The position numbers and the translations under genes are program-made. Source: an uncultured candidatus Porisulfidus sp. (GTDB taxonomy: Bacteria > Pseudomonadota > Gammaproteobacteria > Poriferisulfidales > Oxydemutatoraceae). From it: 64,000 bases of DNA. The DNA lies in contig OZ244052.1 of the NCBI GenBank assembly GCA_965215125.1, positions 832,713-896,712 on the forward strand. Direction: 5' to 3'. The notes under the pieces are model-generated. The model was not told the DNA's origin and did no database searches. It saw only the letters and a program-made list of their open reading frames with translations. How positions within the stretch are numbered: position 1 is the first letter of the stretch; the number at the start of each line of letters is the position of its first letter. Of this stretch, positions 14,045 to 63,895 are shown one piece after another.

Positions 14045-14100
14045 AGCCGTGTCGCTATAAAAAATAGAACCGCCACTTGTTGCAGTAGTGCAAGTGGCGT
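14045..14100. repeat. repeat-family copy (hairpin variant: gaaccgccacttgttgcagtagtgcaagtggcgtgac)
   Basis: Palindrome ccacttg-ttgcagtag-tgcaagtgg flanked by gaaccgc..gcgtgac, related to module a of the repeat family; a similar hairpin (gccacttgctccagttgggcaagtggcgtgac) is at 35300-35330. Confidence 0.6.
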
Positions 14101-14128
14101 GACGTTATAAGGTAGGCTTACAGTGTAA

Positions 14129-14941
14129 TTATCCGTATCTGGCAAGATAAAGCTTTATGCCTCGGTATCGCTTAATGGTAAGGAGTTTCTGAAAGGCATT
14201 TTTTCTAGTTATTAAATTTTGCTCGCTTAATTTTTTTTGAAAAAACTTAAGATCACTGGAAGAGTTAAAGCCCCTCCAATCTCTGTTTCCTCCTTGTTGC
14301 GAGAGTTTTTTATAGTAGTTATAGTTTTCTATAAAAGCCTTGTAACGCTCATAGGATCCATTCAGAAAATATCTAATGCGAGATATTTCTCTTTCCGGGT
14401 ATGTTAGTAAATCTTCATAGTATATAACCATTTTGTCTCCCTTAAAACGATCGTAGGCAACTATTAAATCTAAATAATCGAAAGCTGTACCGATAAAATT
14501 TATAACGTTCCTAGGTCTACTAATAAGTTCATGATAATCTCTAATTATCAGCAAAATAGCCGATACAAAAGTCGCTTTATAAGCCCAATGAGATTTATAA
14601 AGAATAAAGGGATTTTTTGGATTTACATGAGCTAAGGGATGTTCTTTGCCAGGGAAAGTATTTAGATAAATAGGAACATCTTTTGCATTACCTATGCCTC
14701 CATAAGTAGGGGAACTGGTGAGATATTCGGCTATAAAACGAACCCAATGATTACCGCTTTGAGGAGACGACCATAGTGCCCTATGATTGAAGGCAAGGTT
14801 ACGGGTAAAATAGCCAAAGTAATCTATCTTATTCGGATTAGTTAGAAATAAATAAAATAATAAGTCTGCGATTCTTTTTGAAAAAAATGAGTTACTATCA
14901 AGTCTATTGAATACAAGTCTATTGAATAATTTGCGATACAT
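14129..14941 (-). CDS. sulfotransferase-family protein (putative)
   Basis: 270 aa in an AT-rich tract; WSSPQSGNHWVRFI resembles the PKSGTTW 5-prime-PSB loop of sulfotransferases; IIRDYHELISRP resembles the RNPKD..VS 3-prime-PB motif. Confidence 0.5.
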   Translation of the reverse strand: MYRKLFNRLVFNRLDSNSFFSKRIADLLFYLFLTNPNKIDYFGYFTRNLAFNHRALWSSPQSGNHWVRFIAEYLTSSPTYGGIGNAKDVPIYLNTFPGKEHPLAHVNPKNPFILYKSHWAYKATFVSAILLIIRDYHELISRPRNVINFIGTAFDYLDLIVAYDRFKGDKMVIYYEDLLTYPEREISRIRYFLNGSYERYKAFIENYNYYKKLSQQGGNRDWRGFNSSSDLKFFQKKLSEQNLITRKNAFQKLLTIKRYRGIKLYLARYG

Positions 14942-15045
14942 GTATCATCCGGTAAATAATATTAAACATTATTTTAGCATTTATAGGGGAAAGCTATGTG
15001 TCATTGTAATGCGCTTAGGTTCTACACAAAGTTACACCGTTTGTG

Positions 15046-15510
15046 TTATCGCATCTTCTGGAGCCTGCGCTTTTCCATATCCCAACTGCGGTTGCGTTCA
15101 GCCATGCGTTTATCGTATTTGTGTTTTCCTTTGCCGATCCCCAGTTGGAGCTTGGCGCGGTTATTTTTCCAGTGCAGATCCAGCGGTATTAGGGAGTAAC
15201 CCTTGCGCGTGAGTTTTCCTTGCAAGCTGCGTAGTTCACGGCGATTGAGTAATAACTTGCGGGTGCGGGTAGGGTTTATCCGCGGATCACTTACGCTCGG
15301 CAACGGACTGATATGCGCATTGATTAACCACGCCTCGTTATCTTTCAGTATCGCATAGCTTTCTTTTAATTGTATGCGATTGGCTCTTAGACTTTTAACT
15401 TCCCAACCGTTGAGTACGATACCCGCTTCTATGCGCTCGTCTATGAAGTAGTCGCGCATCGCTTTAGGATTATGTGCCGTTTTGTTTCTTTTTATTTTGT
15501 TAGTTTTCAT
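15046..15510 (-). CDS. smpB: SsrA-binding protein SmpB
   Basis: 154 aa; NRKARHDYFI-like start (KAMRDYFIDERIEAGIVLNGWEVKSLR) and a basic C-terminal tail; conserved smpB / ratA-rnfH-bamE neighbourhood. Confidence 0.9.
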   Translation of the reverse strand: MKTNKIKRNKTAHNPKAMRDYFIDERIEAGIVLNGWEVKSLRANRIQLKESYAILKDNEAWLINAHISPLPSVSDPRINPTRTRKLLLNRRELRSLQGKLTRKGYSLIPLDLHWKNNRAKLQLGIGKGKHKYDKRMAERNRSWDMEKRRLQKMR

Positions 15511-15541
15511 AGTTCTACTATAATAAGGTTTTACTTTTTAT

Positions 15542-16927: not shown

Positions 16928-16934
16928 GTAGCCA

Positions 16935-17378
16935 ATGAGTCGTATTGCACGCGAAGCCATAGTGCCTTATACCTGCCGCCAAATGTATAATTTAGTCACC
17001 GATGTGACGAGCTATCCCGAATTTATTTCATGGTGCAACCGCGTTGACACCGAAATCGTAGACCAAAACTCGGTTAAAGTGCGGCTAGGAATACTTTATA
17101 AAAAAAACGTAGACTTGTCTTTTACGACGATCAATACTAATACACCCGGTCGGTCCGTAGAAATGAAATTAGCAGACGGCCCCTTTAGCCGATTGAGCGG
17201 TCATTGGTATTTTAATTCTTTGGGAGAACGCGGTTGTAAAATCATCTTTCAATTGGATTACGAATTTAATAAATCCTTGAAAAATTTACTGGTTAGAAGA
17301 GTCTTTAACGAAGTGTCGACATCTTTGTTGGATTCTTTCCGCACGCGTGCACGGCAAAAATACGGAACACCCGCCTGA
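16935..17378 (+). CDS. ratA: SRPBCC-fold protein RatA/Coq10-like (ribosome association toxin family)
   Basis: 147 aa; similar to YfjG/RatA polyketide-cyclase-like fold (MYNLVTDVTSYPEFISWC); conserved position between smpB and rnfH. Confidence 0.75.
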   Translation: MSRIAREAIVPYTCRQMYNLVTDVTSYPEFISWCNRVDTEIVDQNSVKVRLGILYKKNVDLSFTTINTNTPGRSVEMKLADGPFSRLSGHWYFNSLGERGCKIIFQLDYEFNKSLKNLLVRRVFNEVSTSLLDSFRTRARQKYGTPA

Positions 17379-18059: not shown

Positions 18060-18087
18060 TACACAATGATAATATAAACGGCTTAAA

Positions 18088-18531
18088 TTGGTAAATAATA
18101 TGAACCAACAAGATATTAAACGGGCAGGACTTAAGGTTACGGTACCGAGAATCAAAATACTAGAAATAATGGAGGGAGCGGACTCTCGCCATGTAACCCC
18201 TGAACACATACACCGAAAGCTAACCTTAAAAGGGGAGAATGTTGGTTTGGCAACTATCTATAATGTGCTTGCCCAATTTGAAGCATCCGGACTGATACTG
18301 CGCCGCTATCTAAAAAAAGGACAAGCCTGTTACGAGATCAACCGAGGCGAACATCACGATCACATGGTCTGCACCCAGTGCGGTAGAATAGTCGAATTCG
18401 TCGATCAAACCATAGAAAAACGTCAAGACGCTATTGCCAAGAAACACGGTTTTAAACTCAACGACCACTCTTTGGTGATGTACGTGGATTGCACCTCAAA
18501 AAATTGTAAATATCTAAATCAATCCGAGTAG
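18088..18531 (+). CDS. fur: ferric uptake regulator Fur
   Basis: 147 aa; AGLKVTVPRIKILEIM DNA-binding helix; HHDHMVC and CxxC metal sites. Confidence 0.9.
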   Translation: MVNNMNQQDIKRAGLKVTVPRIKILEIMEGADSRHVTPEHIHRKLTLKGENVGLATIYNVLAQFEASGLILRRYLKKGQACYEINRGEHHDHMVCTQCGRIVEFVDQTIEKRQDAIAKKHGFKLNDHSLVMYVDCTSKNCKYLNQSE

Positions 18532-18656
18532 AACCACCGATTGAGCCGGTAGGTCAATCGGCGTGACATTGTGCAGAACCTTAACATGGGTGTGTAGGGC
18601 GGACCATTCCCCTCCTGTGGAGGGGTGGCAGGCGAAGCCTGACGGGGTGGTTGTGT
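18529..18656. repeat. composite repeat element (module a + module c)
   Basis: gaaccaccgattgagccggtaggtcaatcggcgtgacattgtgcagaaccttaacatgggtgtgtagggc...attcccctcctgtggaggggtggcaggcgaagcctgacggggtggtt sits directly after the fur stop codon. Confidence 0.8.
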
Positions 18657-18767
18657 CGTATTTGCACTATTTTATACATTCATCCATTTGATCTATGGGA
18701 ACCATTATTTGTTTATGCAGGGTGGTTGGTACTGCGCATAACAGCACTCGAGGGAAATGGTCAGCCC

Positions 18768-21339: not shown

Positions 21340-21436
21340 TCGTATACGGAGTAAGATGAATTAATGTTGCTTATTATAAAGGTATATCAACCTAAAGTAG
21401 AGGAGAATAGAACGACACTGTACTTGTGCGGATACG

Positions 21437-21550
21437 CCACAACCACCCCATGGAAAGGTTTTACATTTTGTATATATGCTAGGGTTTTGCACAATGTCAC
21501 GCCGATTGACCTACTGGCTCAATCGGCGGTTCTATTGCGCCTGCCATCCT
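21437..21550. repeat. composite repeat element (module b + module a, inverted orientation)
   Basis: cacaaccaccccatggaaaggttttacattttgtatat...ttgcacaatgtcacgccgattgacctactggctcaatcggcggttctattgcgcctgcca; gives rise to the spurious ORF 21364..21588. Confidence 0.8.
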
Positions 21551-21682
21551 TTCACAAGAGGGTAGTAACTCGCGCCATAGGACATTAAAAGCAACTGGTA
21601 CCACAAAGTAGTATAAAATTGCTTTATTGATTTGTACGCACCACACCGAGAAACCGATACCCGTATTATTTACATAGCATAC

Positions 21683-24210: not shown

Positions 24211-24552
24211 CTACTTAGGTCTATAATCGGCGGAGGTTTCATTCACGGACACTCGCCTATGATCAAAAACCACATACTTTTCCTTGATGACTTTCTTAAA
24301 ATCATCCGATATGTTTTGCCAATCTAAAACATCTACTTTGAAAGGAAGATCCGATTCTTCAAAGTCAAATTTAAGTAAGTTCATAACCTGCAAAGGTATT
24401 TTGTTTTGTGAAACGATAGCCAAGTCAAGATCGGAACTATTATTCGCAGTCTGCTTTACGCGCGAACCGAAAACCCAAATCGTTGCATCGGGAACATGCT
24501 TTTTAAGAATACGCCGAACAATTTTCTCGTGACGAGGTCGCAGGCTAATCAT
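24211..24552 (-). CDS. minimal nucleotidyltransferase (MNT), antitoxin-type partner of HEPN
   Basis: 113 aa; pol-beta-type NTase motif GSRVKQTANNSSDLDLAIV (GS...DxD); overlaps the upstream HEPN gene by 8 bp. Confidence 0.7.
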   Translation of the reverse strand: MISLRPRHEKIVRRILKKHVPDATIWVFGSRVKQTANNSSDLDLAIVSQNKIPLQVMNLLKFDFEESDLPFKVDVLDWQNISDDFKKVIKEKYVVFDHRRVSVNETSADYRPK

Positions 24553-24958
24553 TTAATTTCCGTTCCATTTGTTTGAGGACATATTGAACCTCTTGCAGAA
24601 AATCATCGGTTGCGTAAAAAACTTGATCGGCAATGCTTAAATCGTAAGTATGGGAACTATTATCTCTATTATTTTTATAGACGAACCATTTCTCGGCATC
24701 CGATAAAATCCCTACTTTTTGACCGTAACGAAAGATATCCCGAATAGGCATTTGATCGAAGTTTTCGTCGTAATATTCCTTTAAGTAGCGAACCAGCATT
24801 TTGCGCGCCATTTCATAGCTAATAACAAATGCCTGAATAGCCCCTCTTTTTAGTGAGCGCTCGTGTTTTTCGTCCGTCCCCTTATATTTGTTATAGATAG
24901 TCAGAGACTCTTCCAATGCTACGATAGTTTTCTTAAAACTACTTAAATCAAGTGCCAT
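24545..24958 (-). CDS. HEPN-domain protein, HI0074-family nucleotidyltransferase substrate-binding protein (toxin-type)
   Basis: 137 aa; HI0074-like sequence and a C-terminal Rx4H HEPN motif (RDNSSH). Confidence 0.7.
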   Translation of the reverse strand: MALDLSSFKKTIVALEESLTIYNKYKGTDEKHERSLKRGAIQAFVISYEMARKMLVRYLKEYYDENFDQMPIRDIFRYGQKVGILSDAEKWFVYKNNRDNSSHTYDLSIADQVFYATDDFLQEVQYVLKQMERKLND

Positions 24959-25084
24959 AGGTTCCCATTCAATAATTAGAGATTTCGGAAAATATTTTTG
25001 TTAAATAAAACGATTTCCCATATCCCACATATTTTACCATTCCTTTGATTCGTGATAATTCATGGATGTATTCTGTACCGACAT

Positions 25085-25203
25085 AACGCTTTAAGGTTCT
25101 GCACAACGTCACACCAATAGACCTATCGGGCAGACATCATAATTGCCGATTGACCTACTGGTTCAATCGGCGGCTCTATACTGCCCCTACAAACTCAATC
25201 GGT
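25085..25203. repeat. repeat-family copy (module a variant, inverted)
   Basis: ggttctgcacaacgtcacacc...gccgattgacctactggttcaatcggcggctctatactgcccc...caatcggtggttc overlaps the 3-prime end of the glycosyltransferase gene. Confidence 0.7.
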
Positions 25204-26406
25204 GGTTCTCTTTTTTTCAATACCGGCAACCTTGTCATATCTAAGGGATTTTTTCCAGGCCTTATCCACTCTAGCTTTCCGTACAAGATCTTTTTGAGGA
25301 ATAGAAATATAATTTGAAATACTTTTATGATATCTGATTTTTCGGTTGTCCATAGAAACGATTTTTATTGCAGGATTAAAGAATCTAATAGTGTCTATAA
25401 AAAAAGAACCCACAGTGTAAATCATTTTGACTTTTGCTAATGTCAAAATGTCAATCAAAGCATCTTGTCTTTGTTGATGCCCTGCATACGGTTCATGGCG
25501 GTGTAGTGATCGCCTGTCCTTAGACCGTTTTATATCTCTGCTAATTACTCTACCGGAAAATGCTTCGTGTATTGCATCAACGAAATGTGTATTATCCGAA
25601 CATGCATAGATCTGACAATGATCATCTATTACTTGTTTAAGATAATCAATATAGCTATCTATGCTAATTATTCTATTTTCGTCAATAACATCGGTTTGAC
25701 GATAATGTACTCCTATACACTCTTCTTTAATATTTGCATTACTCCATTGATCCGCTTGCTGTTGTATTTCCTGCTTGATAGATAGCTTTGAAATTATTTT
25801 ATATCCGTATTCGCTGGAAATTTTAGACTTAGCGAATTCTTCCCATAGGCTAGGGTATATCTTTTCTCTATAACACAGATCCACCAGCGGTTTCTTTAAT
25901 TTTGTAAAATTCTCCGGATGGTATGTTTTTGCATAATTCAAAACAGGATTTTCAAAGAAATTGCTACCACCGGTGATAAAAGTATCGGGGAAAGTAAACT
26001 TGACATTAATGCCTAGTTTTTCACACAACCAAGCTACTCCAATTATTCTAGGAAAATAACTTCCTAGCGCAGGACAATCTATTTTTACATAAGCATAATC
26101 GGCCAAAGAGGTTTTGCGGTGCGCAGTATATTGTTTGAAGAAATCTTTATATAAAAAATCATATGCTTTTTTGACGGGTTCATAATTATATCTAAATTCA
26201 AACTCTATTTTTTCAGGGAATCCATTATTGAAACAAGCAAAAGGGTGTCGCATCAAAAACAAGGTGTTCCTAATCAATTGCCCATAGAATCTTTTATATC
26301 TAGTATTGGAGCACTGCTCGGAAACACAGAAAAAAACATAGGCAATTATTATTCTAGCTTTAAGTATGTGAAAGTAATTAGTGACTTTAAAAAACATTTT
26401 GTTCAA
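25195..26406 (-). CDS. fucosyltransferase-superfamily glycosyltransferase (FUT8/NodZ/GT11-like motifs)
   Basis: 403 aa, AT-rich; motif I IGVHYRQTDV (compare GVHVRRTDK); motif II IYACSDNTHFVDAIHEAF (compare FLATDDP...EA); motif III DILTLAKVKMIYTVGSFF (compare DIYILSQADFLVCTFSSQ); assignment by motif only. Confidence 0.45.
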   Translation of the reverse strand: MNKMFFKVTNYFHILKARIIIAYVFFCVSEQCSNTRYKRFYGQLIRNTLFLMRHPFACFNNGFPEKIEFEFRYNYEPVKKAYDFLYKDFFKQYTAHRKTSLADYAYVKIDCPALGSYFPRIIGVAWLCEKLGINVKFTFPDTFITGGSNFFENPVLNYAKTYHPENFTKLKKPLVDLCYREKIYPSLWEEFAKSKISSEYGYKIISKLSIKQEIQQQADQWSNANIKEECIGVHYRQTDVIDENRIISIDSYIDYLKQVIDDHCQIYACSDNTHFVDAIHEAFSGRVISRDIKRSKDRRSLHRHEPYAGHQQRQDALIDILTLAKVKMIYTVGSFFIDTIRFFNPAIKIVSMDNRKIRYHKSISNYISIPQKDLVRKARVDKAWKKSLRYDKVAGIEKKRTTD

Positions 26407-27336: not shown

Positions 27337-28298
27337 TCATTTATAGGGTCGGATATAGCCATAGCCTCTATTTCCAGGAGTAGTTCGGTGCGGCACATCT
27401 GTCCTTCGAACACCTGCAATTCAATATCCAAACCTAAATGTCTATCAATCAGTGTAGCGATGTCTGCCGATACGCGCTTGTCTACATACAGTTTGATGTG
27501 TCGCAATCGTTCAATCGGCATTTTGCTATAACGATGTTCTGTTTTGGCTGCTTCGCTCAATAACGAGTTTAGATTATTTACTATCTCGTTTAATTGTGCG
27601 TCTGCATCACCCTCGTGCAAGCTCTCGTGGCCTACGATTGCAGCGGTGCCGGAGATATAAAGATGACTTTTGCCCCCCCATTGTTTTAGCGTTGCACGCG
27701 CAAACATAGGGGCTGGTTCTACATAGTGCTTGGGGTACATATACGGTAAAGTCTGACGAGGATTTTTGACGGCGATACCCGCTTTGCGAGCCGCAACAAA
27801 ATAGACTACGCCGTAGTGTGCCCCCGTTCCGATCACGGTGGCAGCGCAATAAGAATCCTCTTTATGCAAGGAAAAAGCCTGCGCCCTTGCATCGCAAAAC
27901 ACTTGATAATCGGATGGTTCGGCAAGTTGTGGCAAATAGTGCCAAACCCTCAACAACGAATAATGTTCCGAGTTTAATAGTTGCACCATATCTTTGTATG
28001 TTTCTCGCAAATCTTCGGCAATACGCTTTTGATCGAGTTCGGCATGCCCGAATAAAACGGCATCGTTGAAGGCATAAGATAATTTCCCGCGTTCTCCGAG
28101 ATGAACCGGTTGGTCGGCATACCAATTCTCAAAAGGTTGTATTTGACACAAAGGCATCAAGTTTGTTTTTATGACATCTTCGGGTGCGTATGCTTTCAGG
28201 GCAATGCTGGCGAGACGGCATGGATGGTCGGATGACAATGGCTCTTTTTCAAGCCGTATATCAAAAGGCATTTGGGGCTGTTGAAAGTGTATTGGCAT
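27333..28298 (-). CDS. FkbO/Hyg5/XanB2-like chorismatase candidate (N-terminal domain + RidA/YjgF-like C-terminal domain)
   Basis: 321 aa; the C-terminal about 110 aa (LYISGTAAIVGHE...NEIVNNLNSLL...IKLYVDKRVSAD...ELQVFEG...EIEAMA) fits the RidA/YjgF fold; the two-domain size matches the FkbO-family chorismatases; translationally coupled to mutM (4-bp overlap). Confidence 0.35.
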   Translation of the reverse strand: MPIHFQQPQMPFDIRLEKEPLSSDHPCRLASIALKAYAPEDVIKTNLMPLCQIQPFENWYADQPVHLGERGKLSYAFNDAVLFGHAELDQKRIAEDLRETYKDMVQLLNSEHYSLLRVWHYLPQLAEPSDYQVFCDARAQAFSLHKEDSYCAATVIGTGAHYGVVYFVAARKAGIAVKNPRQTLPYMYPKHYVEPAPMFARATLKQWGGKSHLYISGTAAIVGHESLHEGDADAQLNEIVNNLNSLLSEAAKTEHRYSKMPIERLRHIKLYVDKRVSADIATLIDRHLGLDIELQVFEGQMCRTELLLEIEAMAISDPINE

Positions 28299-28299: not shown

Positions 28300-28630
28300 G
28301 CAAAAATAGAATCGCCGATTAAGCCGGTAGGTCAATCGGCGTGACTTTGTGCAGAACCTCAACATGATTGCTAAATGCATGCATTACAAAATGTAATAGC
28401 TGCTTGCGCCACCCAATTACGCAAACCACCTGCGCCGTATGGTTTTGGTTTCCATAAATCGGGTGGATGTATAAATTGTTCAGATACGACACAACCACCC
28501 CATGGAAAGGCTTTACATATTGTACTATGTACAAAGGTTCTGCACAAAGTGACACCACTTGTGCTACTGCAACAAGCGGTGGTTCTATTGCGCCTGCCAC
28601 CCCTCCACAGGAGGGGAATTGACTCGTGCA
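28300..28630. repeat. large composite repeat block (module a, module b, module a-inverted, module c-inverted)
   Basis: gccgattaagccggtaggtcaatcggcgtgactttgtgcagaacctcaacatg ... acacaaccaccccatggaaaggctttacatattgtactatgtacaaaggttctgcacaaagtgacaccacttgtgctactgcaacaagcggtggttctattgcgcctgccacccctccacaggaggggaatt; produces the overlapping spurious ORFs 28319..28642, 28371..28631 and 28375..28698. Confidence 0.8.
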
Positions 28631-31613: not shown

Positions 31614-31846
31614 CGACAATCATTCCCCTCCTTCAAAGGGGTGTCAAGCTCTGCTTGACGGTGACGTTGCAGCGTGTCTGCACAACTATAGTGCCGGTAC
31701 ATTCCCCTCCTTCGGAGGGGTGGCAGGCGCAATAGAACCGCCGATTGAGCCAGTAGGTCAATCGGCGTAACATTGTGCAGAACCTCGATACATAGTACAA
31801 AATGTAAAGCCTTTCCTTGGGGTGGTCGCAGAAGTATCCGTACAAG
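31614..31846. repeat. composite repeat block filling the whole sulP-trmB intergenic region
   Basis: attcccctccttcaaaggggtg...attcccctccttcggaggggtggcaggcgcaatagaaccgccgattgagccagtaggtcaatcggcgtaacattgtgcagaacctcgatac...acaaaatgtaaagcctttccttggggtggtcgc...attcccttcctctggaggggaatg: modules c (twice, variant loops), a and b-inverted. Confidence 0.8.
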
Positions 31847-32542
31847 CTAATTCCCTTCCTCTGGAGGGGAATGTGCCGGTACTCTATATTGCAAATCATG
31901 AATGTGATGCTTCAATGCTTTTCCGCGTCGTTCAAATCCGGTAATCGGACGCAGCGGTGGTGTGTCTATTTTTTGATAGCGCTTACTTTCGGCAATCGCG
32001 GTGTGCATCTCTTCGGCGTAATCATCCCAATCGGTGGCTAGATGTAACACACCGTCCGGACAGAGTTTATCGGCTAACATATCGACAAAGCTCGTTTGTA
32101 TCAGTCTACGCTTATGGTGACGCTTTTTAGGCCACGGGTCCGGAAACAAAACTAAAATTTTGTTCAGGCTGCGGTTCGTAAAACATTGCGGCACCACCGC
32201 CGCCGCATCCGCGCGTATTATCTTTATATTGCTCAGTGCTTTGGTTTTAATTTTATTCAGCAATGCACCTATCCCGGGCGGATATACTTCTATCCCTATA
32301 AAATCGGTATCGGTATCGGTTTCCGCCATAGCCGCCAATACCTCGCCGTTCCCGAACCCGATCTCCAACACCGTCGGAGCTTTGCGCTTGAAAATAGTCT
32401 CTAGATCCAGCAAGCGGTCGCCGACATCTATGCCGTAATCCTTCCAATATGTCTGCAACGCATATCGCTGTGCTTTTGTGGTACGTCCGCTGCGTAGCAC
32501 ATAGCTGCGTATCGGATAGTGCAGCGGTGCAGATTTCAACAT
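31847..32542 (-). CDS. trmB: tRNA (guanine46-N7)-methyltransferase
   Basis: The track ORF 31847..32893 overlaps thiG; the TrmB-like part starts at the internal Met (MLKSAPLHYPIRS...) giving about 232 aa with the SAM-binding LEIGFGNGE and FPDPWPKKRHHKRR motifs. Confidence 0.8.
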   Translation of the reverse strand: MLKSAPLHYPIRSYVLRSGRTTKAQRYALQTYWKDYGIDVGDRLLDLETIFKRKAPTVLEIGFGNGEVLAAMAETDTDTDFIGIEVYPPGIGALLNKIKTKALSNIKIIRADAAAVVPQCFTNRSLNKILVLFPDPWPKKRHHKRRLIQTSFVDMLADKLCPDGVLHLATDWDDYAEEMHTAIAESKRYQKIDTPPLRPITGFERRGKALKHHIHDLQYRVPAHSPPEEGN

Positions 32543-32562
32543 TCGGAGTATCGTCTTAGGGC

Positions 32563-33354
32563 TTAGAAGAATAATTGTTCGGAAGGCGACGATGCCGATG
32601 CAAAACGGCGCTTGGGCATACGCCCGGCGAGCCATGCCATACGCCCAGATTCTACGGCTTTTTTCATCGCCGCCGCCATCAATACGGGGTCTTCGGCTTC
32701 GGCTATCGCAGTATTCATCAATACACCGTCGCAACCTAGTTCCATAGCAATTGCGGCATCGGAGGCGGTGCCTACACCTGCATCTACGATAATCGGTACT
32801 TGCGCATTTTCCACGATACTTAAGATATTGTACGGGTTGCGTATACCCAGACCCGAACCTATGGGTGCCGCCAAAGGCATAACGGCAACACAACCGGCTT
32901 GCTCAAACTGCTTCGCCGCAATCGGGTCGTCGTTGGTATACACCATTACATCAAAGCCTTCTTTGACTAAAACTTCGGTTGCGCGTAAGGTTTGAACGAT
33001 ATGCGGGAACAAGGTCTCGGAGTCACCCAAAACTTCCAACTTCACTAACTGATTACCGTCCAACAACTCGCGTGCAAGTCGGCAAGTACGTATTGCATCC
33101 TCGGCGGTGTAACAGCCTGCGGTGTTCGGCAATATCGTATAGCGATCGGGTGGCACGATATCCAGTAGATTGGGTTGAGCCTTCTCTTGACCGACATTCG
33201 TGCGCCTGATAGCCACCGTCACAATCTCGGTACCCGAGGCTTCTATTGCATCTCGGGTCTCGGAGAAATCTCGATATTTACCGGTGCCGAGTAACAGACG
33301 AGAGTCATAGTCTTTGCCGGCAATATTCAGGGTCTTGTCCGCTCTTTTAGCCAT
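32563..33354 (-). CDS. thiG: thiazole synthase
   Basis: 263 aa; LLLGTGKY start and a conserved TIM-barrel ThiG sequence (VMPY..DP). Confidence 0.9.
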
Positions 33355-34106: not shown

Positions 34107-35228
34107 CTACTCCATAGAAATATCCGGCAAACGATAACTGGTGCTACGTCCGCCGCCCGGATTTTGTATGAAGATGCCACGCCCTTTTAGCCCTTGAATA
34201 TCTCGTAAAGCCGTGTCCGTTGAACATTTTGCCAACTTCGCATACTTGGATGTATTGATATAACCTTGAAAATCATACTCGAGCATACGATTTATAACCA
34301 AACGTTGACGCATATTGACCGGCTGCTGATTGATTTTTTCCCAAAGGCGCGCTTTGAATAACACGACATTCAGTTCATTTTCGGCGTTTGTAATTGCACG
34401 TTTTAGGCAATCCAAAAACCATCGCATCCAGCCGGTAATATCCAGCGAACCGCGCTGTTGATTTTCGAGTTGCTTGTAATATTCTCTGCGCTCCGACTCT
34501 ATTTGAGTAGAAAGACTGTAGAAACGGTCGGGGTTTTTGTCTGCACGAGCCAAAACCATATCGGCGATGGCTCTGGCAATACGACCGTTACCATCTTCGA
34601 AAGGGTGAATGGTCACAAACCAAAAATGAGCTAAGCCTGCTTTGAAAACTGCATCGGTGGTGTCGTCGTGCTTCAGCCATTTCATAAAATCTTGCATGTC
34701 TTGATCGATTCTGTTCGCCGGCGGTGCTTGAAAATGTATTTTTTCATGTCCTATGGCACCGGAGACAACTTGCATCGGCTCCGATTTCTCCGTACGCCAA
34801 GCACCCACTGTGATTTTGTGCATCCCGCTTCGCCCAGTCGGAAACAAAGCAGCGTGCCAGTCAAACAAACGACTTTTGGTTAAAGGTTTAGCGAATTGTC
34901 GGGTAGCATCGAGCATTATTTCTACGATACCCTCAACATCGCGACCGGTAGGAACGAGCCCGGCAATATCGATTCCTAAGCGACGAGCAATAGAGGAACG
35001 TACCTCTTCGGGATTTAAATTTTCTCCTTCAATAGCCGAAGACTTCACAACATCCTTGGTGAGTGTATTAAGATTTGCCTCCAGTCTTAAATCAAAGCCT
35101 AGATTTTTCATTCTACCGAGCAACATCCCCTGACTATGACGTACATCCGCAAGTTTATAAGTCAAAGTGTCGTTATCCCAAGTGAAATTCGGCCAGTTGT
35201 CGTGTTCGTATATCCACATAATAATCAC
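34107..35228 (-). CDS. Fic-family protein (adenylyltransferase/AMPylase fold)
   Basis: 373 aa; Fic core motif HPFEDGNGRIARA; N-terminal inhibitory-helix-like motif SSAIEGE ([ST]xxxE[GN]); C-terminal winged-helix-like region; the start is GTG at 35228, or ATG at 35219. Confidence 0.85.
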   Translation of the reverse strand: MIIMWIYEHDNWPNFTWDNDTLTYKLADVRHSQGMLLGRMKNLGFDLRLEANLNTLTKDVVKSSAIEGENLNPEEVRSSIARRLGIDIAGLVPTGRDVEGIVEIMLDATRQFAKPLTKSRLFDWHAALFPTGRSGMHKITVGAWRTEKSEPMQVVSGAIGHEKIHFQAPPANRIDQDMQDFMKWLKHDDTTDAVFKAGLAHFWFVTIHPFEDGNGRIARAIADMVLARADKNPDRFYSLSTQIESERREYYKQLENQQRGSLDITGWMRWFLDCLKRAITNAENELNVVLFKARLWEKINQQPVNMRQRLVINRMLEYDFQGYINTSKYAKLAKCSTDTALRDIQGLKGRGIFIQNPGGGRSTSYRLPDISME

Positions 35229-35276: not shown

Positions 35277-35400
35277 GAATCGCTGATTGAGCCATAGAAT
35301 CGCCACTTGCTCCAGTTGGGCAAGTGGCGTGACTTCGTGCAAAACTAAATACTGCGTCCGTTAGAAACATTACATATATCCAAAGTCAATCGGCGGTTCT
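35277..35400. repeat. repeat-family copy (module a variants split by a hairpin)
   Basis: gaatcgctgattgagccatagaatcgccacttgctccagttgggcaagtggcgtgacttcgtgcaaaac ... caaagtcaatcggcggttctac. Confidence 0.6.
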
Positions 35401-39314: not shown

Positions 39315-39377
39315 ACCAAAACCTCATTAGTTGAAAAGCCTATTTTACATGATAACCTACATGCTTAGAGGCGGACT

Positions 39378-39494
39378 ATTCCCCTCCTGTGGAGGGGTGG
39401 CAGGCGCAGCCTGACGGGGTGGTTATTCCCCTCCTGTGGAGGGGTGGCAGGCGCAGCCTGACGGGGTGGTTATTCCCCTCCTGTGGAGGGGAAT
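39378..39494. repeat. head-to-tail tandem array of repeat module c (2.5 x 47 bp)
   Basis: attcccctcctgtggaggggtggcaggcgcagcctgacggggtggtt appears twice exactly and is then followed by attcccctcctgtggaggggaat; lies between fdxA and xthA. Confidence 0.9.
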
Positions 39495-42862: not shown

Positions 42863-42950
42863 GTTGAGGTTCTGCACAAGTCACGCCATTTGTTGTCGTT
42901 GCAACCACCCCGTCAAGCTCCGCTTGCCACCCCTCCACAGGAGGGGAATG
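42863..42950. repeat. repeat-family copy (module a-inverted + module c-inverted)
   Basis: gttgaggttctgcacaagtcacgcc...caaccaccccgtcaagctccgcttgccacccctccacaggaggggaatg directly upstream of the accC stop. Confidence 0.75.
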
Positions 42951-44306: not shown

Positions 44307-44419
44307 TTTAAGGTTGTTGAAATATTACAAAATGCAAAACCGCCCCTACGGGTGGTTTGCAGATATTCTCGGCGCATAGCGGTTGCGGTCGTGCCAAACG
44401 GTACTTTAGGGCGGACATG

Positions 44420-44899
44420 TTAGTCCGCCCCTACAGAAGGTTCTATCCGAATAATAGTTTGCCCGAACTCAACGGGTTCTGCGTTTTCCACTAGGATCGC
44501 TTCAACGGTGCCGGAAATCGGGGCTTCAATATGGTTCATCATTTTCATCGCTTCTATAATGCAGAGAGGTTCACCTTTTTTAATCGTAGTTCCAATTTCC
44601 ACAAAGGGAGCGGCATCGGGCGATGAGGATCTATAAAAAGTCCCCACCATCGGAGCTTCAACATCATGTAAACTTGACGACAATGCTTCATGCTCTGCAC
44701 CGGCAGGTTGTTCACTGCTCGCTTGCTGCGTATTTTGCGAAGGTGCCGGTGTTGATATTGTCTGCGTTGTAGCTACCGGTGGTGCGATATTGCTTGCACG
44801 GCTGATTCTTACCGTGTCATCACCTTCTGTTACTTCTATTTCAGAGATGCCCGACTCTTCCAAAAGCTCTATCAGTTTTTTAACCTTACGTATATCCAT
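44420..44899 (-). CDS. accB: acetyl-CoA carboxylase biotin carboxyl carrier protein
   Basis: Start moved to the internal Met ([23 protein letters not shown]); biotinylation motif EAMKMMN; the longer track ORF would overlap aroQ. Confidence 0.85.
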
Positions 44900-48213: not shown

Positions 48214-49589
48214 AATTAATTCGTAATTTTTTTTATGCTCTTATTGTCTGCAACTCCATAACTGGGAATTATGTATTTAACCTGACAAGGTTTTTAGCCT
48301 TGCCATGTTCAACCATTTTTTGACGCTTCACAGACCAACAAATGTTGCAATCTCGACACCCGATAGCGGCACTCCCAGCCGCCATAATGTTTAATGCAGC
48401 ATTGATGTCCGCATTGCCCTCGTGTCCGCAGTACTGACACTTAAATATCGCTTGTGTTTTGCGGTTAGCTTTATTTACGCTTCCACATTTATTACAGGTT
48501 TGACTCGTGTAGTGTGCCGGCACTTTCTCCACATGGGCTTTGTAGCTTAAGCATTGCTCTAGCCTACTCCAGCCACTCTTTAGTATCTCCCTGTTCAAAC
48601 CTGACTTCGCCTTCACATTCTTACTCGGGCTGTCTATCGTCCCCTTCGCCGACTTCGTCATGCCTGCTGTATTCAATCCTTCCATATAAACACTATCGTA
48701 TTTATCTGCTATTAGCTTGTTGGTTTGATGACTCCAATTCGCTCTCACAAATCGCTCCGCTTGATATGCGCTCTGTAGTCTATGCTTCGCTAGCTTTCGT
48801 CTATTGCTCCCCTTGACCCGTCTTGCCACCATTCGTTGATAGTGCCTACGCCTTGCTTCCTTAAGCTTTAGGTCGGGTAGGTGATATATCGTTCCGTCCG
48901 ATAATGCTATCTGTCCCACATTCCTATCCAAACCCACTTCCTTTAGCATGTGCGGTTTGTCCGCTATCTCTACTTCATAAGTGATATAAGCATACCAGTT
49001 TCCGTACTCATGCTTCACTTGACCCGATACAAACTTCTCACCTTTATACCTATCCCCACCGGCAAACTTCATCCAACCAACCTTCTGTATGTAAATATGC
49101 TCGCCCGCTATTCGTGCTGTTTGCTTATCTATTGAAAATGAAGGATTATATGTATATCTGCTGTGAAACTTCGGCAATCCGCCATTACCAGTAAAGAAGT
49201 TTCTATAGCTAGTTTCTATTGGTTTTAATGACATCTTCACTATATAAGCGGAATATCCTTGCAGCCACTTGTCGCAATGCTTCCGCAAAGTCGTAAATTG
49301 CTTGCCTATTGTGAAATAACTAAACCGGCTCTCCCCGTAATACTCGTACTCGTCTCTCAACTTCTCTACAAAGTGATTCCAAACATATCGGCATGCGCCT
49401 GCAGTCCCGTGTAGCTTCTGGTGTTTCTCTTTTGTCGCCGGGTAAAGGCGATAGCGGATTGTTCTGTGGATTTTCATTGGTTTATTTTAACATTTTCTTG
49501 TCAAGTTATATGCATAATTCCGACTCAAGTAAATAGAATATCACCACTTGCTTCAAATGAACCGGCACTATACCCGTGCAGATACGACG
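48214..49589 (-). mobile_element. IS1341-like (tnpA-less IS605-family) element, approximate limits
   Basis: The tnpB ORF with about 55 bp to the yaaA start on one side and about 110 bp before the next repeat-family copy on the other; the ends are not defined by visible hairpins, so the limits are approximate. Confidence 0.4.
48269..49477 (-). CDS. tnpB: RNA-guided endonuclease TnpB (IS200/IS605 family OrfB, IS1341-like solo)
   Basis: 402 aa; N-terminal OrfB_IS605 region; RuvC-I GLDRNVG; RuvC-II YMEGLN; zinc finger CNKCGSVNKANRKTQAIFKCQYCGHEG; RuvC-III NADINAALNI; all three catalytic acidic residues present; no tnpA nearby. Confidence 0.85.
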   Translation of the reverse strand: MKIHRTIRYRLYPATKEKHQKLHGTAGACRYVWNHFVEKLRDEYEYYGESRFSYFTIGKQFTTLRKHCDKWLQGYSAYIVKMSLKPIETSYRNFFTGNGGLPKFHSRYTYNPSFSIDKQTARIAGEHIYIQKVGWMKFAGGDRYKGEKFVSGQVKHEYGNWYAYITYEVEIADKPHMLKEVGLDRNVGQIALSDGTIYHLPDLKLKEARRRHYQRMVARRVKGSNRRKLAKHRLQSAYQAERFVRANWSHQTNKLIADKYDSVYMEGLNTAGMTKSAKGTIDSPSKNVKAKSGLNREILKSGWSRLEQCLSYKAHVEKVPAHYTSQTCNKCGSVNKANRKTQAIFKCQYCGHEGNADINAALNIMAAGSAAIGCRDCNICWSVKRQKMVEHGKAKNLVRLNT

Positions 49590-49700
49590 GGGCTGTTGAA
49601 AAAGTATTCACGAACTGTAGGACGGTACATTCCCCTCCTGTGGAGGGGTGGCAGGCAGAGCCTGACGGGGTGGTTAATTCCCCTCCACAGGAGGGGAATA
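49590..49700. repeat. composite repeat (ggggctgttgaaaaagtatt module + module c + inverted-loop c half)
   Basis: acggggctgttgaaaaagtattcacg...attcccctcctgtggaggggtggcaggcagagcctgacggggtggttaattcccctccacaggaggggaat, between the tnpB upstream end and the tgt stop. Confidence 0.8.
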
Positions 49701-55777: not shown

Positions 55778-55782
55778 ACACA

Positions 55783-55960
55783 TGGGGCTGTTGAAAAAGT
55801 ATTTCATACATCATAGGGGCGGACTTGCATGTCAGCCCGTAACGCGTTATGCCTGCACGATTTATACATTCATTCATCCAATTTATGGAAACCAAAACCA
55901 TACGGCGCAAACGGTTAAGTTTGTGCAAAACGGTACTTTTTCAACAGCCTCACATCACTA
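55783..55960. repeat. inverted-repeat (MITE-like) element
   Basis: Left arm atggggctgttgaaaaagtatttcat; right arm acggtactttttcaacagcctcacat (16-bp perfect arms ggctgttgaaaaagta); a spacer of about 125 bp; the same arm sequence occurs singly at 49590. Confidence 0.6.
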
Positions 55961-55961
55961 G

Positions 55962-56405: not shown

Positions 56406-56458
56406 GTTCGCCTCTGCGCAAGCGATGTTTCTTATGCTTACTTAACGCAAGTCTTGCC

Positions 56459-57917: not shown

Positions 57918-57959
57918 TTTCCGGCGTATAAAATTTATAAGCGTGTGATACCAACAGGT

Positions 57960-58448: not shown

Positions 58449-58461
58449 TATTCCGATTCCT

Positions 58462-59271: not shown

Positions 59272-59333
59272 GTCGTTCTCCCTAATTATGTAAAGTGAAT
59301 AAAAGCCTTTTCAAGTATACCACAAATAAATAA

Positions 59334-59470
59334 AACCGCCGATTGAGCCAGTAGGTCAATCGGCGTAACTTTTTACAAAACCTGAATATTGTGTCCATTA
59401 GGAATGTTACATATATCAAAATCAATCGGCGCGACCTCGTGCAGAACCTTAACATGGGTGTGTAGGGCCG
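59334..59470. repeat. repeat-family copy (two module a copies)
   Basis: aaaccgccgattgagccagtaggtcaatcggcgtaactttttacaaaacc ... caatcggcgcgacctcgtgcagaaccttaacatgggtgtgtagggc. Confidence 0.75.
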
Positions 59471-59620
59471 GATATATCAAACAAAGCTATCGCATTCTAA
59501 TAGTTTGCTACAATAACTACTCGGACCCCTCTTTTGAGTCTCGCATCCGGTAGACTTAAATAATTAATAGGGGTTTCGTGAAAATATATTTACTTTATCT
59601 TGATTAGAGGAGGAAAGATC

Positions 59621-60031: not shown

Positions 60032-60180
60032 CGCAACAACCGAATCCGTGTGGGGCTATTGTGCAAGGGAGGGTGTTAACCCTCCCCTACACGCATCGGG
60101 TAACGCATATTAGCAATGTCGGATTTGTAATAACTGCCTTGCATAGAATACGGTTGATATTCAAAGTGCAATGATAGGGC

Positions 60181-61170: not shown

Positions 61171-61271
61171 CTAACTGTGCTCGGTGCCCTTTTCATTGAT
61201 ATATCCGACTGCCAAACACAGCTACAATGAGGAAATAGTACCGACTTTATAACACTGATAAAGGAGTAAAG

Positions 61272-62969
61272 ATGAGTAGTTTTTTTTCAAAGGAGCGGAT
61301 TGTAGCCGAGGAAGGGTTTAATCGCTGGCGCGTGCCACCGGCATCGATTGCGATACACCTTTGCATCGGTTCGGTCTATGCGTGGAGTATTTACAATCCT
61401 GCATTGACGAAAGTCGTCGGTGTCGTCGCCAGTTCCGCCGACGATTGGACCTTAACCGAAGTCGTCTGGATTTTCACCGTTGCTATTCTGGTTTTGGGGC
61501 TTGCTGCGGCGTTTGCCGGCAAATGGCTCGAGGAAGTCGGGCCGCGCACGGTCGGTATTGTCGCCGCCTTTTGCTGGGGCGGCGGTTATGTAGTAGGCAG
61601 TCTGGGCATCTATCTGAATCAAGTATGGTTACTTTATCTCGGCTATGGCGTGATCGGGGGATGCGGTTTAGGTTTGGGTTATGTATCGCCGGTTAGTACT
61701 TTGATCCGCTGGTTTCCCGACCGGCGCGGTATGGCAACCGGAATGGCAATTATGGGTTTCGGCGGCGGCGCAATGCTGGGAACGCCCTTGAAAGAATATT
61801 TCCTTCAAAAATTTTACCGTGCACCCGAATATTTAGGCTCAATCGATAGTTTGGATTTGATTACCGAAGCCGGTAGACGTTTCGTGCAGATAGGCGGCGA
61901 ATTAAAAGAAGTGGTGGTGGTCGGTGCAAACGAAGTTTCCGGCATGATCGTTCCGGGAGATCCCGGTGTCTATCTACTCGGCACAGGTTCGGTCGGTGCA
62001 TGGCAGACATTTTTATTTATCGGTTTAATTTATTTTATTGTGATGCTGATCGCAGCGTTGAGCTATCGTATTCCGCGCGAGGGTTGGACTCCCGAAGGTT
62101 GGACACCACCGAGTAAATCCGTTTCCGATAAGAAAATGATAACGCAAGGCAATGTGGACATAGACCAGGCATTGAAGACACCACAATTCTATCAACTATG
62201 GATCGTCTTATGTTTCAATGTCACCGCCGGTATCGGTGTTATCGGCGTTGCCAAGACGATGATTACCGACATCTTCGGTTCCGCTTTGCCGGGCATAGTA
62301 GACGGTGCTTTTGCCGCAACCTATGTCTTGATGATCAGCGTGTTTAATATGATCGGCAGAGTATTGTGGGCAGGTTCGTCCGATTTTATCGGACGCAAGA
62401 ATACCTATTGGATATTTTTTGTCGGAGGTATATTACTTTATTTGTCTATCCCGTTTGCCGCACAACAAGTGAGTGTTCATCCTACGGTATTTTGGTTGGT
62501 ATTTTTCTATGCGGCAACGATGATTATATTCACCTTCTACGGCGGTGGTTTCGCAACCATTCCCGCCTACTTGGCGGATATTTTCGGCACCCATCATGTC
62601 GGTGGCATCCACGGTAGACTACTAACCTCATGGAGCACCGCCGGCGTATTAGGGCCGCTTGCTATTACCACTTTGCGGCAAAACTCACTCAGCAATTCAA
62701 TTCACGAGTTGGCTGCCAAAGTGGATCCGGCAAAATTTGCCGAAACCTTCGGGGCAGGAATTGATAAACTGGACTTATTGATTGAAAAAAAGACCGTAAC
62801 GCTCGCCAAGTTGCTCGAAATCTCGCCGCCGGGAACCGTGGACCCCACACCCAGCCTATATAATACGACGATGTATTTGATGGCGTTTCTGCTACTTCTA
62901 GCATTGATATCAAATGCGCTTATGAAGCCGGTGCATCCCAAGCATCACATCAATGACGGGAAAACATAG
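61272..62969 (+). CDS. MFS transporter, oxalate:formate antiporter (OFA) family
   Basis: 565 aa; the OFA-family N-terminus RWRVPPASIAIHLCIGSVYAWSIYNPAL; 12 TM helices with a long central loop. Confidence 0.75.
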   Translation: MSSFFSKERIVAEEGFNRWRVPPASIAIHLCIGSVYAWSIYNPALTKVVGVVASSADDWTLTEVVWIFTVAILVLGLAAAFAGKWLEEVGPRTVGIVAAFCWGGGYVVGSLGIYLNQVWLLYLGYGVIGGCGLGLGYVSPVSTLIRWFPDRRGMATGMAIMGFGGGAMLGTPLKEYFLQKFYRAPEYLGSIDSLDLITEAGRRFVQIGGELKEVVVVGANEVSGMIVPGDPGVYLLGTGSVGAWQTFLFIGLIYFIVMLIAALSYRIPREGWTPEGWTPPSKSVSDKKMITQGNVDIDQALKTPQFYQLWIVLCFNVTAGIGVIGVAKTMITDIFGSALPGIVDGAFAATYVLMISVFNMIGRVLWAGSSDFIGRKNTYWIFFVGGILLYLSIPFAAQQVSVHPTVFWLVFFYAATMIIFTFYGGGFATIPAYLADIFGTHHVGGIHGRLLTSWSTAGVLGPLAITTLRQNSLSNSIHELAAKVDPAKFAETFGAGIDKLDLLIEKKTVTLAKLLEISPPGTVDPTPSLYNTTMYLMAFLLLLALISNALMKPVHPKHHINDGKT

Positions 62970-63029
62970 GGTATACTAATGAGTTTGTTTTGGTTCAATA
63001 CACGATAATTTACGAGGAGAAAAAACGAT

Positions 63030-63542
63030 ATGATGTTTATCAATAGCAAAGAACAACTTAAAAATATCTGCCGTTGCTTGATAGCGAACCGCGGATTACT
63101 CATCGCAATATTTGCAGCCGGCGTACTGAGTTCACCGGCGGTTTCCGATGACCTTGCAAAAGGCGAAAAAACTTTTATCAAGTGCAAAGTATGTCACGCG
63201 GTGGAGAAGGATGTAAGCAAAATAGGTCCTAGCTTGCATGGTGTCTTCGGACGCAAAGCGGGAAGTTTGGAAAGTTTTCCGAACTATTCCGATGCAATCA
63301 AATCGACCGATATAGTTTGGGGAGATGAGACCATACGCGAATTCGTAAAGGCACCGCGCACTTATATCGCCGGTACAAAAATGATTTTTATAGGTATCAA
63401 AGACGATAAGGTGATAGATGACTTATTGGCTTATCTAAAATCGGTCACAGGTGCCGAAACCGGTTCCGAGACTTCCGATACCGAGACCTCGGATGCCGGC
63501 TCCGCCGCCGAGATGTCTCCGACCGAAGCGACTGTAGAATAG
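63030..63542 (+). CDS. class I c-type cytochrome (c2/c550-like) with acidic Ser/Thr-rich C-terminal tail
   Basis: 170 aa; signal peptide; CKVCH heme site; GPSLHGVFGRKAG; Met ligand GTKMIF; C-terminal ETGSETSDTETSDAGSAAE extension. Confidence 0.8.
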   Translation: MMFINSKEQLKNICRCLIANRGLLIAIFAAGVLSSPAVSDDLAKGEKTFIKCKVCHAVEKDVSKIGPSLHGVFGRKAGSLESFPNYSDAIKSTDIVWGDETIREFVKAPRTYIAGTKMIFIGIKDDKVIDDLLAYLKSVTGAETGSETSDTETSDAGSAAEMSPTEATVE

Positions 63543-63561
63543 TTTTTTATTACTTAAAGTT

Positions 63562-63895
63562 AATTCCCCTCCTGTGGAGGGGTGGCAGGCGCAATAGAAC
63601 CGCCGTTTGTTGCAAATAATCGTTCCTTGTTGCAGTAGCACAAGGAACATCACCTTATACAAGATTCAGCTATTTATGGCTGTTAGAAATAATACGAATA
63701 GCAAAGACAAACGGCGTGACATTGTGCAGAACCATAGCATATATACAAAATGTATGCCTTTTCATGGGGTGGTTGCTAAGGGTCTGTACAAGGTGCAGTG
63801 TCGGTACATTCCCCTCCTTCGGAGGGGTGGCAGGCGTAGCCTGACGGGGTGGTTGTGTGGTATCTGTACCAGTTAATTCCCTCCCTGATTTTTTC
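63562..63895. repeat. composite repeat block (module c, hairpin, module a-like, module b-inverted, module c)
   Basis: attcccctcctgtggaggggtggcaggcgcaatagaaccgccgtttgttgcaaataatcgttccttgttgcagtagcacaaggaa...aaacggcgtgacattgtgcagaacc...aaatgtatgccttttcatggggtggttgc...attcccctccttcggaggggtggcaggcgtagcctgacggggtggtt. Confidence 0.8.

Follow-up and report, generated by a model that had tools for sequence, protein, structure and literature searches.

What are the short palindromic repeats that crowd the gaps between genes in a 64,000-nt stretch of contig OZ244052.1 (assembly GCA_965215125.1, positions 832,713-896,712; hereafter the window) from an uncultured candidatus Porisulfidus sp., and how did they come to lie there? 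An earlier note on this DNA had described them as three modules (a, b and c) shuffled at 12 intergenic sites. We found that the sites are mosaic clusters, comparable to bacterial interspersed mosaic elements (BIMEs) and neisserial intergenic mosaic elements (NIMEs), in which at least four non-coding repeat families, here called A, c, D and E, are nested in one another. The explanation that we favour, and to which we give a probability of roughly 0.7, is that selfish non-coding repeats, by inserting time and again into one another's hairpin loops, have built up the clusters. The window has a GC content of 45.4%, its coding regions share 80-90% identity with the chromosome OZ241323.1 ('uncultured candidatus Porisulfidus'), a metagenome-assembled genome (MAG), and it holds a SoxYZ gene; its repeats are common to the MAGs OZ241323.1, CBDAVG010000002.1 and OZ244779.1 ('Ca. 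Oxydemutatoraceae'). Judged by these sequences, the host is a sulfur-oxidising gammaproteobacterium close to the 'Ca. Porisulfidus' MAGs and not Neisseria. As the notion of a repeat family predicted, A, c, D and E recur beyond the window, with dozens of loci spread over the chromosomes of three related MAGs (loci are designated below by L numbers).

All 12 sites listed earlier hold at least one element according to direct reading, covariance model and nhmmer searches. Allowing up to 3 mismatches, we located module a in 3 places, module b in 3 and module c in 6, with 0.00 expected in shuffled sequence, and a repeat scan of the window returned 25 direct-repeat families clustered at the same 12 sites. 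Element anatomy and counts thus bear out a dense, mosaic intergenic repeat system resembling miniature inverted-repeat transposable elements (MITEs) and repetitive extragenic palindromes (REPs), and Pfam agreed with the names given to the adjoining genes (fur, the aldo-keto reductase gene tas, sulP, accC, tgt and the cytochrome c and DUF3108 genes). Three shuffled modules, however, oversimplify what is there. Module b has no separate existence: it begins as the 3' portion of A (…TACAAAATGTAA) and continues into the right half of a c element split by A (GCCTTTCCATGGGGTGGT, AGCCTTTCCATGGGGTGGT); the supposed linker GCAATAGAACCGCC is the junction of the left half of c (..GGCAGGCGCA) with the 5' end of A (ATAGAACCGCC); and the 'flipped' loops TGTGG and ACAGG are one palindromic hairpin read in opposite orientations. 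The list of 12 sites stands but is incomplete, since repeats also occur at 15017-15052, 44325-44434, 55784-55951 and 60065-60090, giving about 16 sites per 50 kb in total, and a degenerate c-like hairpin (CCACCCCGGCACAGGATGGGGAT) lies at 9998-10026, upstream of an asd-like gene and outside the range covered by the earlier note.

By their sequence organisation, A and E qualify as classical REPs, in which (G/A)TAG precedes a covarying hairpin. E consists of GTAG, the arm GGGGCGGA (or GGGGAGGG, or GGGGCAGA), an 8-nt loop and the complementary arm, and conforms to the textbook REP layout as defined in PMC8266576. GTAG stands at the base of the stem in 55 of 55 intact E hairpins from the window and 28 related loci, and the stems covary (GGGCGGA, GGGAGGG, GGGCAGA). 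The layout of A is (A/G)TAG, AACCGCC, a stem of 6-9 bp, the loop (G)CCAGTAGG and GGCGTGACATTGTGCAGAACC; compensatory changes again maintain the stem (GATTGA/TCAATC, CACTTG/CAAGTG, GTTTG/CAAAC), and a GTAG-like motif occurs twice, 5' of the stem and within the loop (CAGTAGG). Both elements form stable hairpins, as had been proposed, with folding energies of -13.5 kcal/mol for A (as DNA; z = -5.3) and -10.1 kcal/mol for E (z = -5.1), and all their copies in the window lie between open reading frames (ORFs). nhmmer detected A 13 times in the window, 64 times in related loci and 0 times in other phyla, and A is restricted to this lineage.

The earlier suggestion to look for a REP-associated tyrosine transposase (RAYT) proved productive when the related loci were searched by tblastn with E. 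coli RayT. Positions 6487-6975 of L069 encode a RAYT-like protein of 162 aa that scores 29.4 bits against Pfam Y1_Tnp (cut-off 23) and can be aligned with E. coli RayT through both the HUH and the Y (tyrosine) motif. E repeats inverted to each other lie upstream and downstream of this gene, and a second RAYT copy, a fragment 87% identical to it, is present in L030. The lineage therefore has a locus similar to the REPtrons of E. coli, Pseudomonas and Stenotrophomonas, in which REPs and BIMEs accompany a RAYT (TnpA-REP). Like the repeats of those systems, A and E are short palindromes following GTAG or ATAG, are high in copy number, intergenic and combined in mosaics, and a related genome carries a RAYT-like Y1 transposase gene flanked by inverted E (definition in PMC8266576). 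The Porisulfidus clusters differ from such systems in that nesting in hairpin loops is extreme, reaching three levels, in that A has a GTAG-like motif in its loop as well as 5' of the stem, and in that the mosaics also include a MITE (D) and c, which lacks GTAG and is not specific to the lineage.

Element c is a double hairpin of 46 nt made up of ATT, a first stem CCCCTCC-N3-GGAGGGG, a variable second stem and the tail GGGGTGGT. Covariance model R1, run with filters off, identified 7 full copies in the window, 3 more that A splits, and 3 first hairpins standing alone; a fourth A-interrupted copy, at 21442-21566, is degenerate. Against a model built mainly from other phyla, six copies scored 72-76 bits and one 50 bits. 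When uninterrupted, the second hairpin reads GGCAGGC-GCA-GCCTGAC; when interrupted by A, it reads GGCAGGCGCA | ATAGAACC…TGTAA | AGCCTT…. Full copies lie at 18606-18651 (+, 76.2 bits) and 63808-63853 (+, 76.1 bits), and the weakest, at 31622-31667 (+, 49.8 bits), is a variant with the second stem GTCAAGC/GCTTGAC. By covariance model and Pfam, a further copy (42904-42949, -) lies 4 nt from the accC stop codon and another, accompanied by an inverted solo first hairpin (49629-49699, +), lies 2 nt from that of tgt. The accC-linked copy has the second stem CAAGC/GCTTG and its orthologue in L106 has CAGGC/GCCTG, a compensatory change. At 39378-39494 (+), two c copies and a solo first hairpin follow one another with a 47-nt period (module match and covariance model); we rejected a CRISPR array at this place because the 47-nt units are identical throughout and unique spacers are absent.

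D, in turn, is a MITE by its sequence features, with terminal inverted repeats of 17-18 nt (GGGGCTGTTGAAAAAGT at both ends) and target-site duplications. Its inverted repeat was matched 108 times, always in this lineage, and forms 31 pairs spanning 141-497 bp. The window holds one complete D at 55784-55951, with 17-18-nt inverted repeats (GGGGCTGTTGAAAAAGTA), a (C)ACAT duplication and a decayed E inside, and solo terminal repeats at 28274-28290 (+) and, immediately 5' of c, at 49589-49605 (+). The proposed check for target-site duplications was positive for D, with 4-6 bp at several but not all copies ((C)ACAT in the window, also CACAT; CCCAT and GTCGT in L071; ACGAC in L003), and negative for A, E and c. 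A complete insertion sequence (IS) of the IS256 family occupies 7792-9107, with a Transposase_mut ORF at 7868-9100, imperfect inverted repeats of 28 nt and an 8-bp target-site duplication (CCCGTTTT). We discarded it as the master copy of D, as only about 10 of 12 terminal bases are common to both and its duplication is 8 bp, not 4-6 bp.

Nesting of these families was observed directly and in several combinations. One case in the window, at 25093-25214 (-; nhmmer and sequence), has three levels: an outer A holds E (GTAGGGGCAG..GTCTGCCC) in its loop, and the loop of that E holds another A. At 63563-63774 (+; sequence, covariance model and nhmmer), A lies in the loop of the second hairpin of c, and another A-type element lies in the loop of that A. 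One A within the loop of another, with different stems, was also found at 35277-35400 (+; sequence, nhmmer and fold), and A-in-A nests likewise occur at 63596 and in L041. The loop of the second c hairpin holds A in four window copies; besides the composite just described, these are 21442-21566 (-; sequence and nhmmer), in which the first c hairpin is degenerate and which lies between divergent genes, 28494-28619 (-; covariance model, nhmmer and Pfam), which ends 13 nt from the aldo-keto reductase stop codon, and 31701-31826 (+; covariance model, nhmmer and fold). A Porisulfidus MAG carries A in the identical c loop in the opposite orientation. E occurs in the A loop twice in L102; D is found repeatedly in the E loop, with the flanks GCTAACAT|…|ACATGCCC; and beside the RAYT gene of L069 an E holds D, which itself holds c and A. 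Very small repeats nested within one another are reportedly also a feature of heterocystous cyanobacteria, as described by Elhai et al. in 2008; the sequences are not known to be related to those studied here.

Insertion of D into the E loop (CTAACATG) with a short target-site duplication resembles the behaviour of insertion sequences that target REP loops (IS1397/ISKpn1, ISPpu9/ISPpu10, IS621); ISPpu9 has been placed in REPs (PMC8450116). The inserts described here differ in being non-autonomous elements of 50-500 bp, other REPs included, and no cognate transposase was found for D. Where E sits in the A loop, the inserted hairpin directly follows the GTAG of that loop, from which we infer, with the chemistry of IS200/IS605 and RAYT enzymes as the analogy, that elements insert into single-stranded DNA 3' of an exposed GTAG.

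The view that the sites are insertion hot spots gained support from the region upstream of a ferredoxin gene, where cluster content is wholly different between strains or contigs encoding an identical ferredoxin. A 450-bp cluster in L011 corresponds to 58 bp at the matching place in the window. The contigs with the identical ferredoxin are short metagenome contigs with names beginning ROBB21 and SHAF22, presumably from sponge-microbiome studies. The ferredoxin contigs L123-L131 begin or end inside repeats, and several start within the first hairpin of c.

This turnover bears on the alternative that the hairpins are primarily regulatory RNA of the host, acting as intrinsic terminators, stabilisers of mRNA 3' ends or small RNAs at gene ends. 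Many copies do lie 2-13 nt past stop codons, the hairpins fold stably, E. coli REPs are held to have such roles (PMC8266576), and two terminal c first hairpins score as terminator-like. Those two scores, however, were obtained on the opposite strand from the adjacent genes, and the transcribed strand has no T tract after the hairpins; because of strand and tail we rejected the terminator role that had been suggested. Moreover, c occurs in both orientations to flanking genes, the cluster at 21442-21566 lies between divergent genes, and cluster content is wholly different between strains that share an identical neighbouring gene. Nor do the repeats match Rfam. The only Rfam matches in the window were tRNA and signal recognition particle (SRP) RNA; c had no match, with nothing below E = 1 at two sites, and none of the repeats corresponded to a named family, whether the whole window was searched at the gathering score or two sites at E <= 10. 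A primarily regulatory function is thus unlikely in our assessment. Given their mixed orientation, the wrong-strand terminator scores and the complete turnover, we therefore read the clusters as selfish DNA; effects on the host, such as protection of mRNA 3' ends or recombination hot spots, would be at most secondary.

A kinship with the repeats of Neisseria had also been proposed. NIMEs, as described by Parkhill et al. in 2000, are said to be dense and intergenic and to consist of 20-23-nt hairpins with ATTCCC/GGGAAT ends (dRS3) and short repeat units (RS) between them. Dense intergenic hairpin arrays with such ends are what the window presents too: the first hairpin of c reads ATTCCC-N11-GGGAAT, arrays with short separating units (39378-39494; L115) are NIME-like in form, and the DUF559 structure 3hrl, to which we return below, comes from N. 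gonorrhoeae. The spacer in c, however, is 11 nt and not 8, and the window contains 0 matches to the canonical 20-bp dRS3 (ATTCCC-N8-GGGAAT), 0 to the 26-bp Correia inverted repeat TATAGTGGATTAACAAAAATCAGGAC at up to 3 mismatches and 0 to the DNA uptake sequence (DUS), the last in agreement with the earlier note. The host lineage is gammaproteobacterial, and the DUF559 genes of N. meningitidis, N. sicca and Kingella have no dRS3 beside them and carry a different polypurine hairpin instead. The missing dRS3, Correia and DUS sequences refute membership in a Neisseria-type system, and we consider even a direct relative of one highly improbable.

Where, then, does c come from? Among the matches listed, its 22-base pattern occurred in at least 113 stretches from at least 12 phyla: Cyanobacteria, Chlorobiota, Elusimicrobiota, Firmicutes, Planctomycetes, Nitrospinota, Chloroflexi, Fibrobacteres, Calditrichota, NC10, Desulfobacterota and Proteobacteria. 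Isolates such as Vibrio fujianensis and Nitrosomonas mobilis carry it as well. A further 22 nt of c beyond the search pattern (the 5' ATT and GNAGCCTGACGGGGTGGT) are near-invariant. The second stem covaries: across 110 distinct sequences, 5 of 7 pairs change on both sides and 95% of cells pair, the covariation score was reached by 0 of 500 shuffles, and the pairing breaks down when the register is slid. When the second hairpin was left free, a stem of 4 bp or more formed in 85% of 75 distinct interiors, compared with 13.5% of shuffles. A model search additionally recovered a second class, c2, of 40-42 nt, which combines the first stem and tail of c with many other second stems (GCCC/GGGC, GCCCC/GGGGC, CGCC/GGCG, GCCGC/GCGGC, GGTC/GACC and others). 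No match to the c pattern was found in viral contigs (0), and none to the c doublet by blastn in PLSDB plasmids and E. coli genomes, to which low-complexity filtering may contribute.

Outside this lineage, c is associated with genes for DUF559 proteins. It stands directly before a DUF559 ORF (Pfam E = 1e-29) in 12-15 of about 83 loci from other lineages; the commonest arrangement, at 44 of 83 loci, is a head-to-head doublet of c2 and c (c1) with a 16-25-nt spacer, and the usual order at DUF559 loci is c2(reverse) – spacer – c1 – gene – c2(reverse) – spacer – c1. A search with the DUF559 core domain, which is free of the bias of the c pattern, returned 2,424 clusters of this subfamily at E ≤ 1e-10. 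In 99 of the best 120 homologues the protein ends in HPAL.GTPP.EGN, which is the translation of c2 in reverse, and the variable residues of this C-terminus fall on the two hairpin loops, which points to a constraint on the nucleic acid. In Balneatrix alpica, likewise free of pattern bias, 10 c copies surround the DUF559 gene and the remainder of the 8.4-kb locus is devoid of c, and another homologue lies between hsdM and hsdR among 6 c copies. Such cassettes are often found in type I restriction-modification operons (L076, L079, L085, L092, L113, L115-L122), either immediately after conserved HsdS motifs (..YYRDRLLTFP, ..KKGLMQQLFP) or between hsdM and hsdR. A divergent DUF559 gene (L044, 37-39% identical) is flanked by inverted copies of a divergent hairpin of like architecture, and L052 has an L044-type hairpin pair without a gene. 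In N. meningitidis, N. sicca and Kingella kingae (L132-L136; carA-carB spacer), DUF559 is accompanied by another polypurine hairpin and a 3'-arm repeat, for example CTCTCTCCC-GTG-GGGAGAGAG-TTA-GAGAGAGGGC.

DUF559-containing genes have been placed in the EDxHD family (PMC9403480). The DUF559 proteins flanked by c keep E-x-D-x3-H-D and match PDB 3hrl at E = 1e-17; this motif would link them to Vsr and to the EDxHD homing endonucleases (I-Bth0305I), from which the c-flanked genes differ in being free-standing rather than borne by introns or inteins, and in lying in hairpin arrays, often within type I restriction-modification operons. A table in PMC9881135 lists 'DUF559 domain-containing protein' as 14-fold enriched among predicted inversion targets, and inverted flanks would explain why DUF559 scores as a target of 'programmed inversion' there. 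We found no description of the hairpin or of its partnership with DUF559 in Rfam or the searchable literature. Tentatively, and with less than even confidence, we suggest a second partnership of the REP/RAYT kind, between DUF559 nucleases and the polypurine double hairpins that flank their genes, in which a nuclease gene present in single copy would lie within arrays of the cognate hairpin that its product would recognise. On the same tentative footing, the hairpins would be clade-specific (CCCCTCC/GGAGGGG; CCTCCTTT/AAAGGAGG; CTCTCTCCC/GGGAGAGAG in Neisseria; CCCTCTCC/GGAGAGGG in Kingella), the partnership, unlike REP/RAYT, would be horizontally mobile across phyla, and the c copies of the window would be its dispersed, orphaned progeny.

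It could also be that c is only a cis-acting part of DUF559 genes, as an expression signal or coding 3' end, and that the window copies are inert relics spread by recombination and hitch-hiking alone, on which no enzyme acts. The right-hand c copy overlaps the DUF559 C-terminus, c array length changes by unequal recombination between direct copies, the window copies ride in composites, and neither the window nor the related loci show DUF559. Orphan copies nevertheless keep the full 46 nt at 72-76 bits, the orthologous pair at accC and L106 retains its second stem through a compensatory change, c has been amplified independently in several lineages (Pseudanabaena, L054, L038), and the coincidence of variable C-terminal residues with the two loops again speaks for a nucleic-acid constraint. 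We regard this account as improbable, if slightly less so than a regulatory role. L054 (3496-6952, MAG OZ255827.1) has 16 c copies in 8 kb, in tandem arrays with a 73-nt period; and Pseudanabaena sp. ELA607 (L001, L007, L009, L017 and more than 15 other contigs) carries a composite of a hairpin, a 16-nt spacer, c and a conserved 50-nt tail, which represents an independent amplification of c.

Returning to the explanation by selfish repeats that land in each other's loops, we infer the following steps of mobilisation. A RAYT-type Y1 transposase would spread E and A on single-stranded DNA, and the GTAG exposed in the A loop (CAGTAGG) would offer them a preferred target, which would account for nests of the A-in-A, E-in-A and A-in-E types. 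A DDE transposase would move D in trans, often into the E loop. c is an orphan copy of a pan-bacterial double hairpin that elsewhere occurs in arrays around genes of the DUF559 (EDxHD/Vsr-fold) type, and would have multiplied here mainly as a passenger in D/A composites and by tandem duplication. Of 47 c copies in related MAGs, 25 stand directly behind an inverted repeat of D and 25 are joined to A; these associations and the tandem duplication at 39378-39494 are why hitch-hiking and tandem duplication suffice to account for the spread of c here.

Several observations weigh against this reconstruction. Within the 64-kb window, neither RAYT, nor Y1 TnpA, nor DUF559 is encoded (Pfam and tblastn; every ORF of at least 100 aa not nested in a larger one), so that the c copies of the window are orphans, and the related loci, about 290 kb in all, likewise showed no DUF559 gene. 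No autonomous element with the inverted repeats of D was found, and long inverted-repeat pairs enclose ordinary genes. The tetranucleotide before A, present in 36 of 51 copies, is mostly ATAG (27 copies) and not GTAG (9 copies). A, E and c show no target-site duplication, and no transposition event was resolved at the level of a single A, E or c element, the differences being between whole clusters. All four c::A composites of the window have identical junctions, and some of the nesting could go back to a single ancestral event with later amplification. A function at the level of the host, and not selfish spread, could be behind the extreme conservation of c, and the cross-genome collection of c copies was ascertained with the exact 22-nt pattern.

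The remaining copies in the window and its other genes complete the picture. One A (14063-14115, +; nhmmer, 50 bits), with ATAG, AACCGCC and the stem CACTTG/CAAGTG, lies just 3' of the stop codon of lolA (LolA by Pfam); together with an inverted, partial A at 15017-15052 (-, nhmmer) it brackets the AT-rich ORFan 14129-14941, and regular doublets of a REP and an inverted REP were not seen in the window. A second A, with GTAG and AACCACC, overlaps the fur stop codon (18528-18582, +; module match, nhmmer and Pfam) and is followed by a truncated E (GTAGGGCGGAC; 18592-18604, +) interrupted by c; a similarly interrupted E (TTAGAGGCGGAC) lies at 39364-39376 (+). Further copies are an A at 28305-28360 (+; 64 bits by nhmmer), a partial A adjoining c at 42866-42902 (-), and an A together with the right half of another A and a truncated E at 59329-59472 (+; sequence and nhmmer). 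E also occurs as an intact REP (GTAG, GGGGCGGAC/GTCCGCCC) that is accompanied by one partial copy at 44325-44434 (-; sequence and fold) and as a variant with GTAG and GGGAGGG/CCCTCCC at 60065-60090 (-). At 31850-31872 the covariance model placed a solo c first hairpin; the TrmB-like methyltransferase ORF 31847-32893 (-) reads through it and stops right after, so that the ORF may owe its final codons and stop to the hairpin. Repeats bound the AT-rich islets, as had been claimed, at 14129-14941, in part at 24211-26406 and not at 7030-7806. The ORFs 14129-14941, which has two tandem paralogues in L039, 25195-26406 and 7030-7806 have 33-34% GC compared with 45% for the window; as candidates for hidden transposases the ORFans were dismissed, having no Pfam or NCBIfam match. 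A nucleotidyltransferase and substrate-binding (MNT/HEPN-like) pair at 24211-24958 and a Fic/DOC gene at 34107-35228 each adjoin a repeat cluster. A solo TnpB (OrfB_IS605 / Cas12f-like TNB domain) at 48269-49477 (-), with a homologue 72% identical in the Porisulfidus locus L008, adjoins the repeat site at 49589; its ends bear no likeness to A, c, D or E, and we rejected it as a driver of the repeats.

The window presents a clear case of REPs, a MITE and a foreign hairpin nesting in each other's loops, and the suggested use of GTAG in a hairpin loop as a landing site bears on the open question of how REPs are disseminated. For the symbiont lineage itself, the clusters have the practical consequence of breaking short-read assemblies. 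For DUF559, a very common nuclease family, the 46-nt double hairpin is proposed as a substrate, in which the first stem and the tail would be invariant and the second stem would need only to pair, and the translated hairpin explains the GTPPxEGN-type motifs at the termini of annotated DUF559 proteins.

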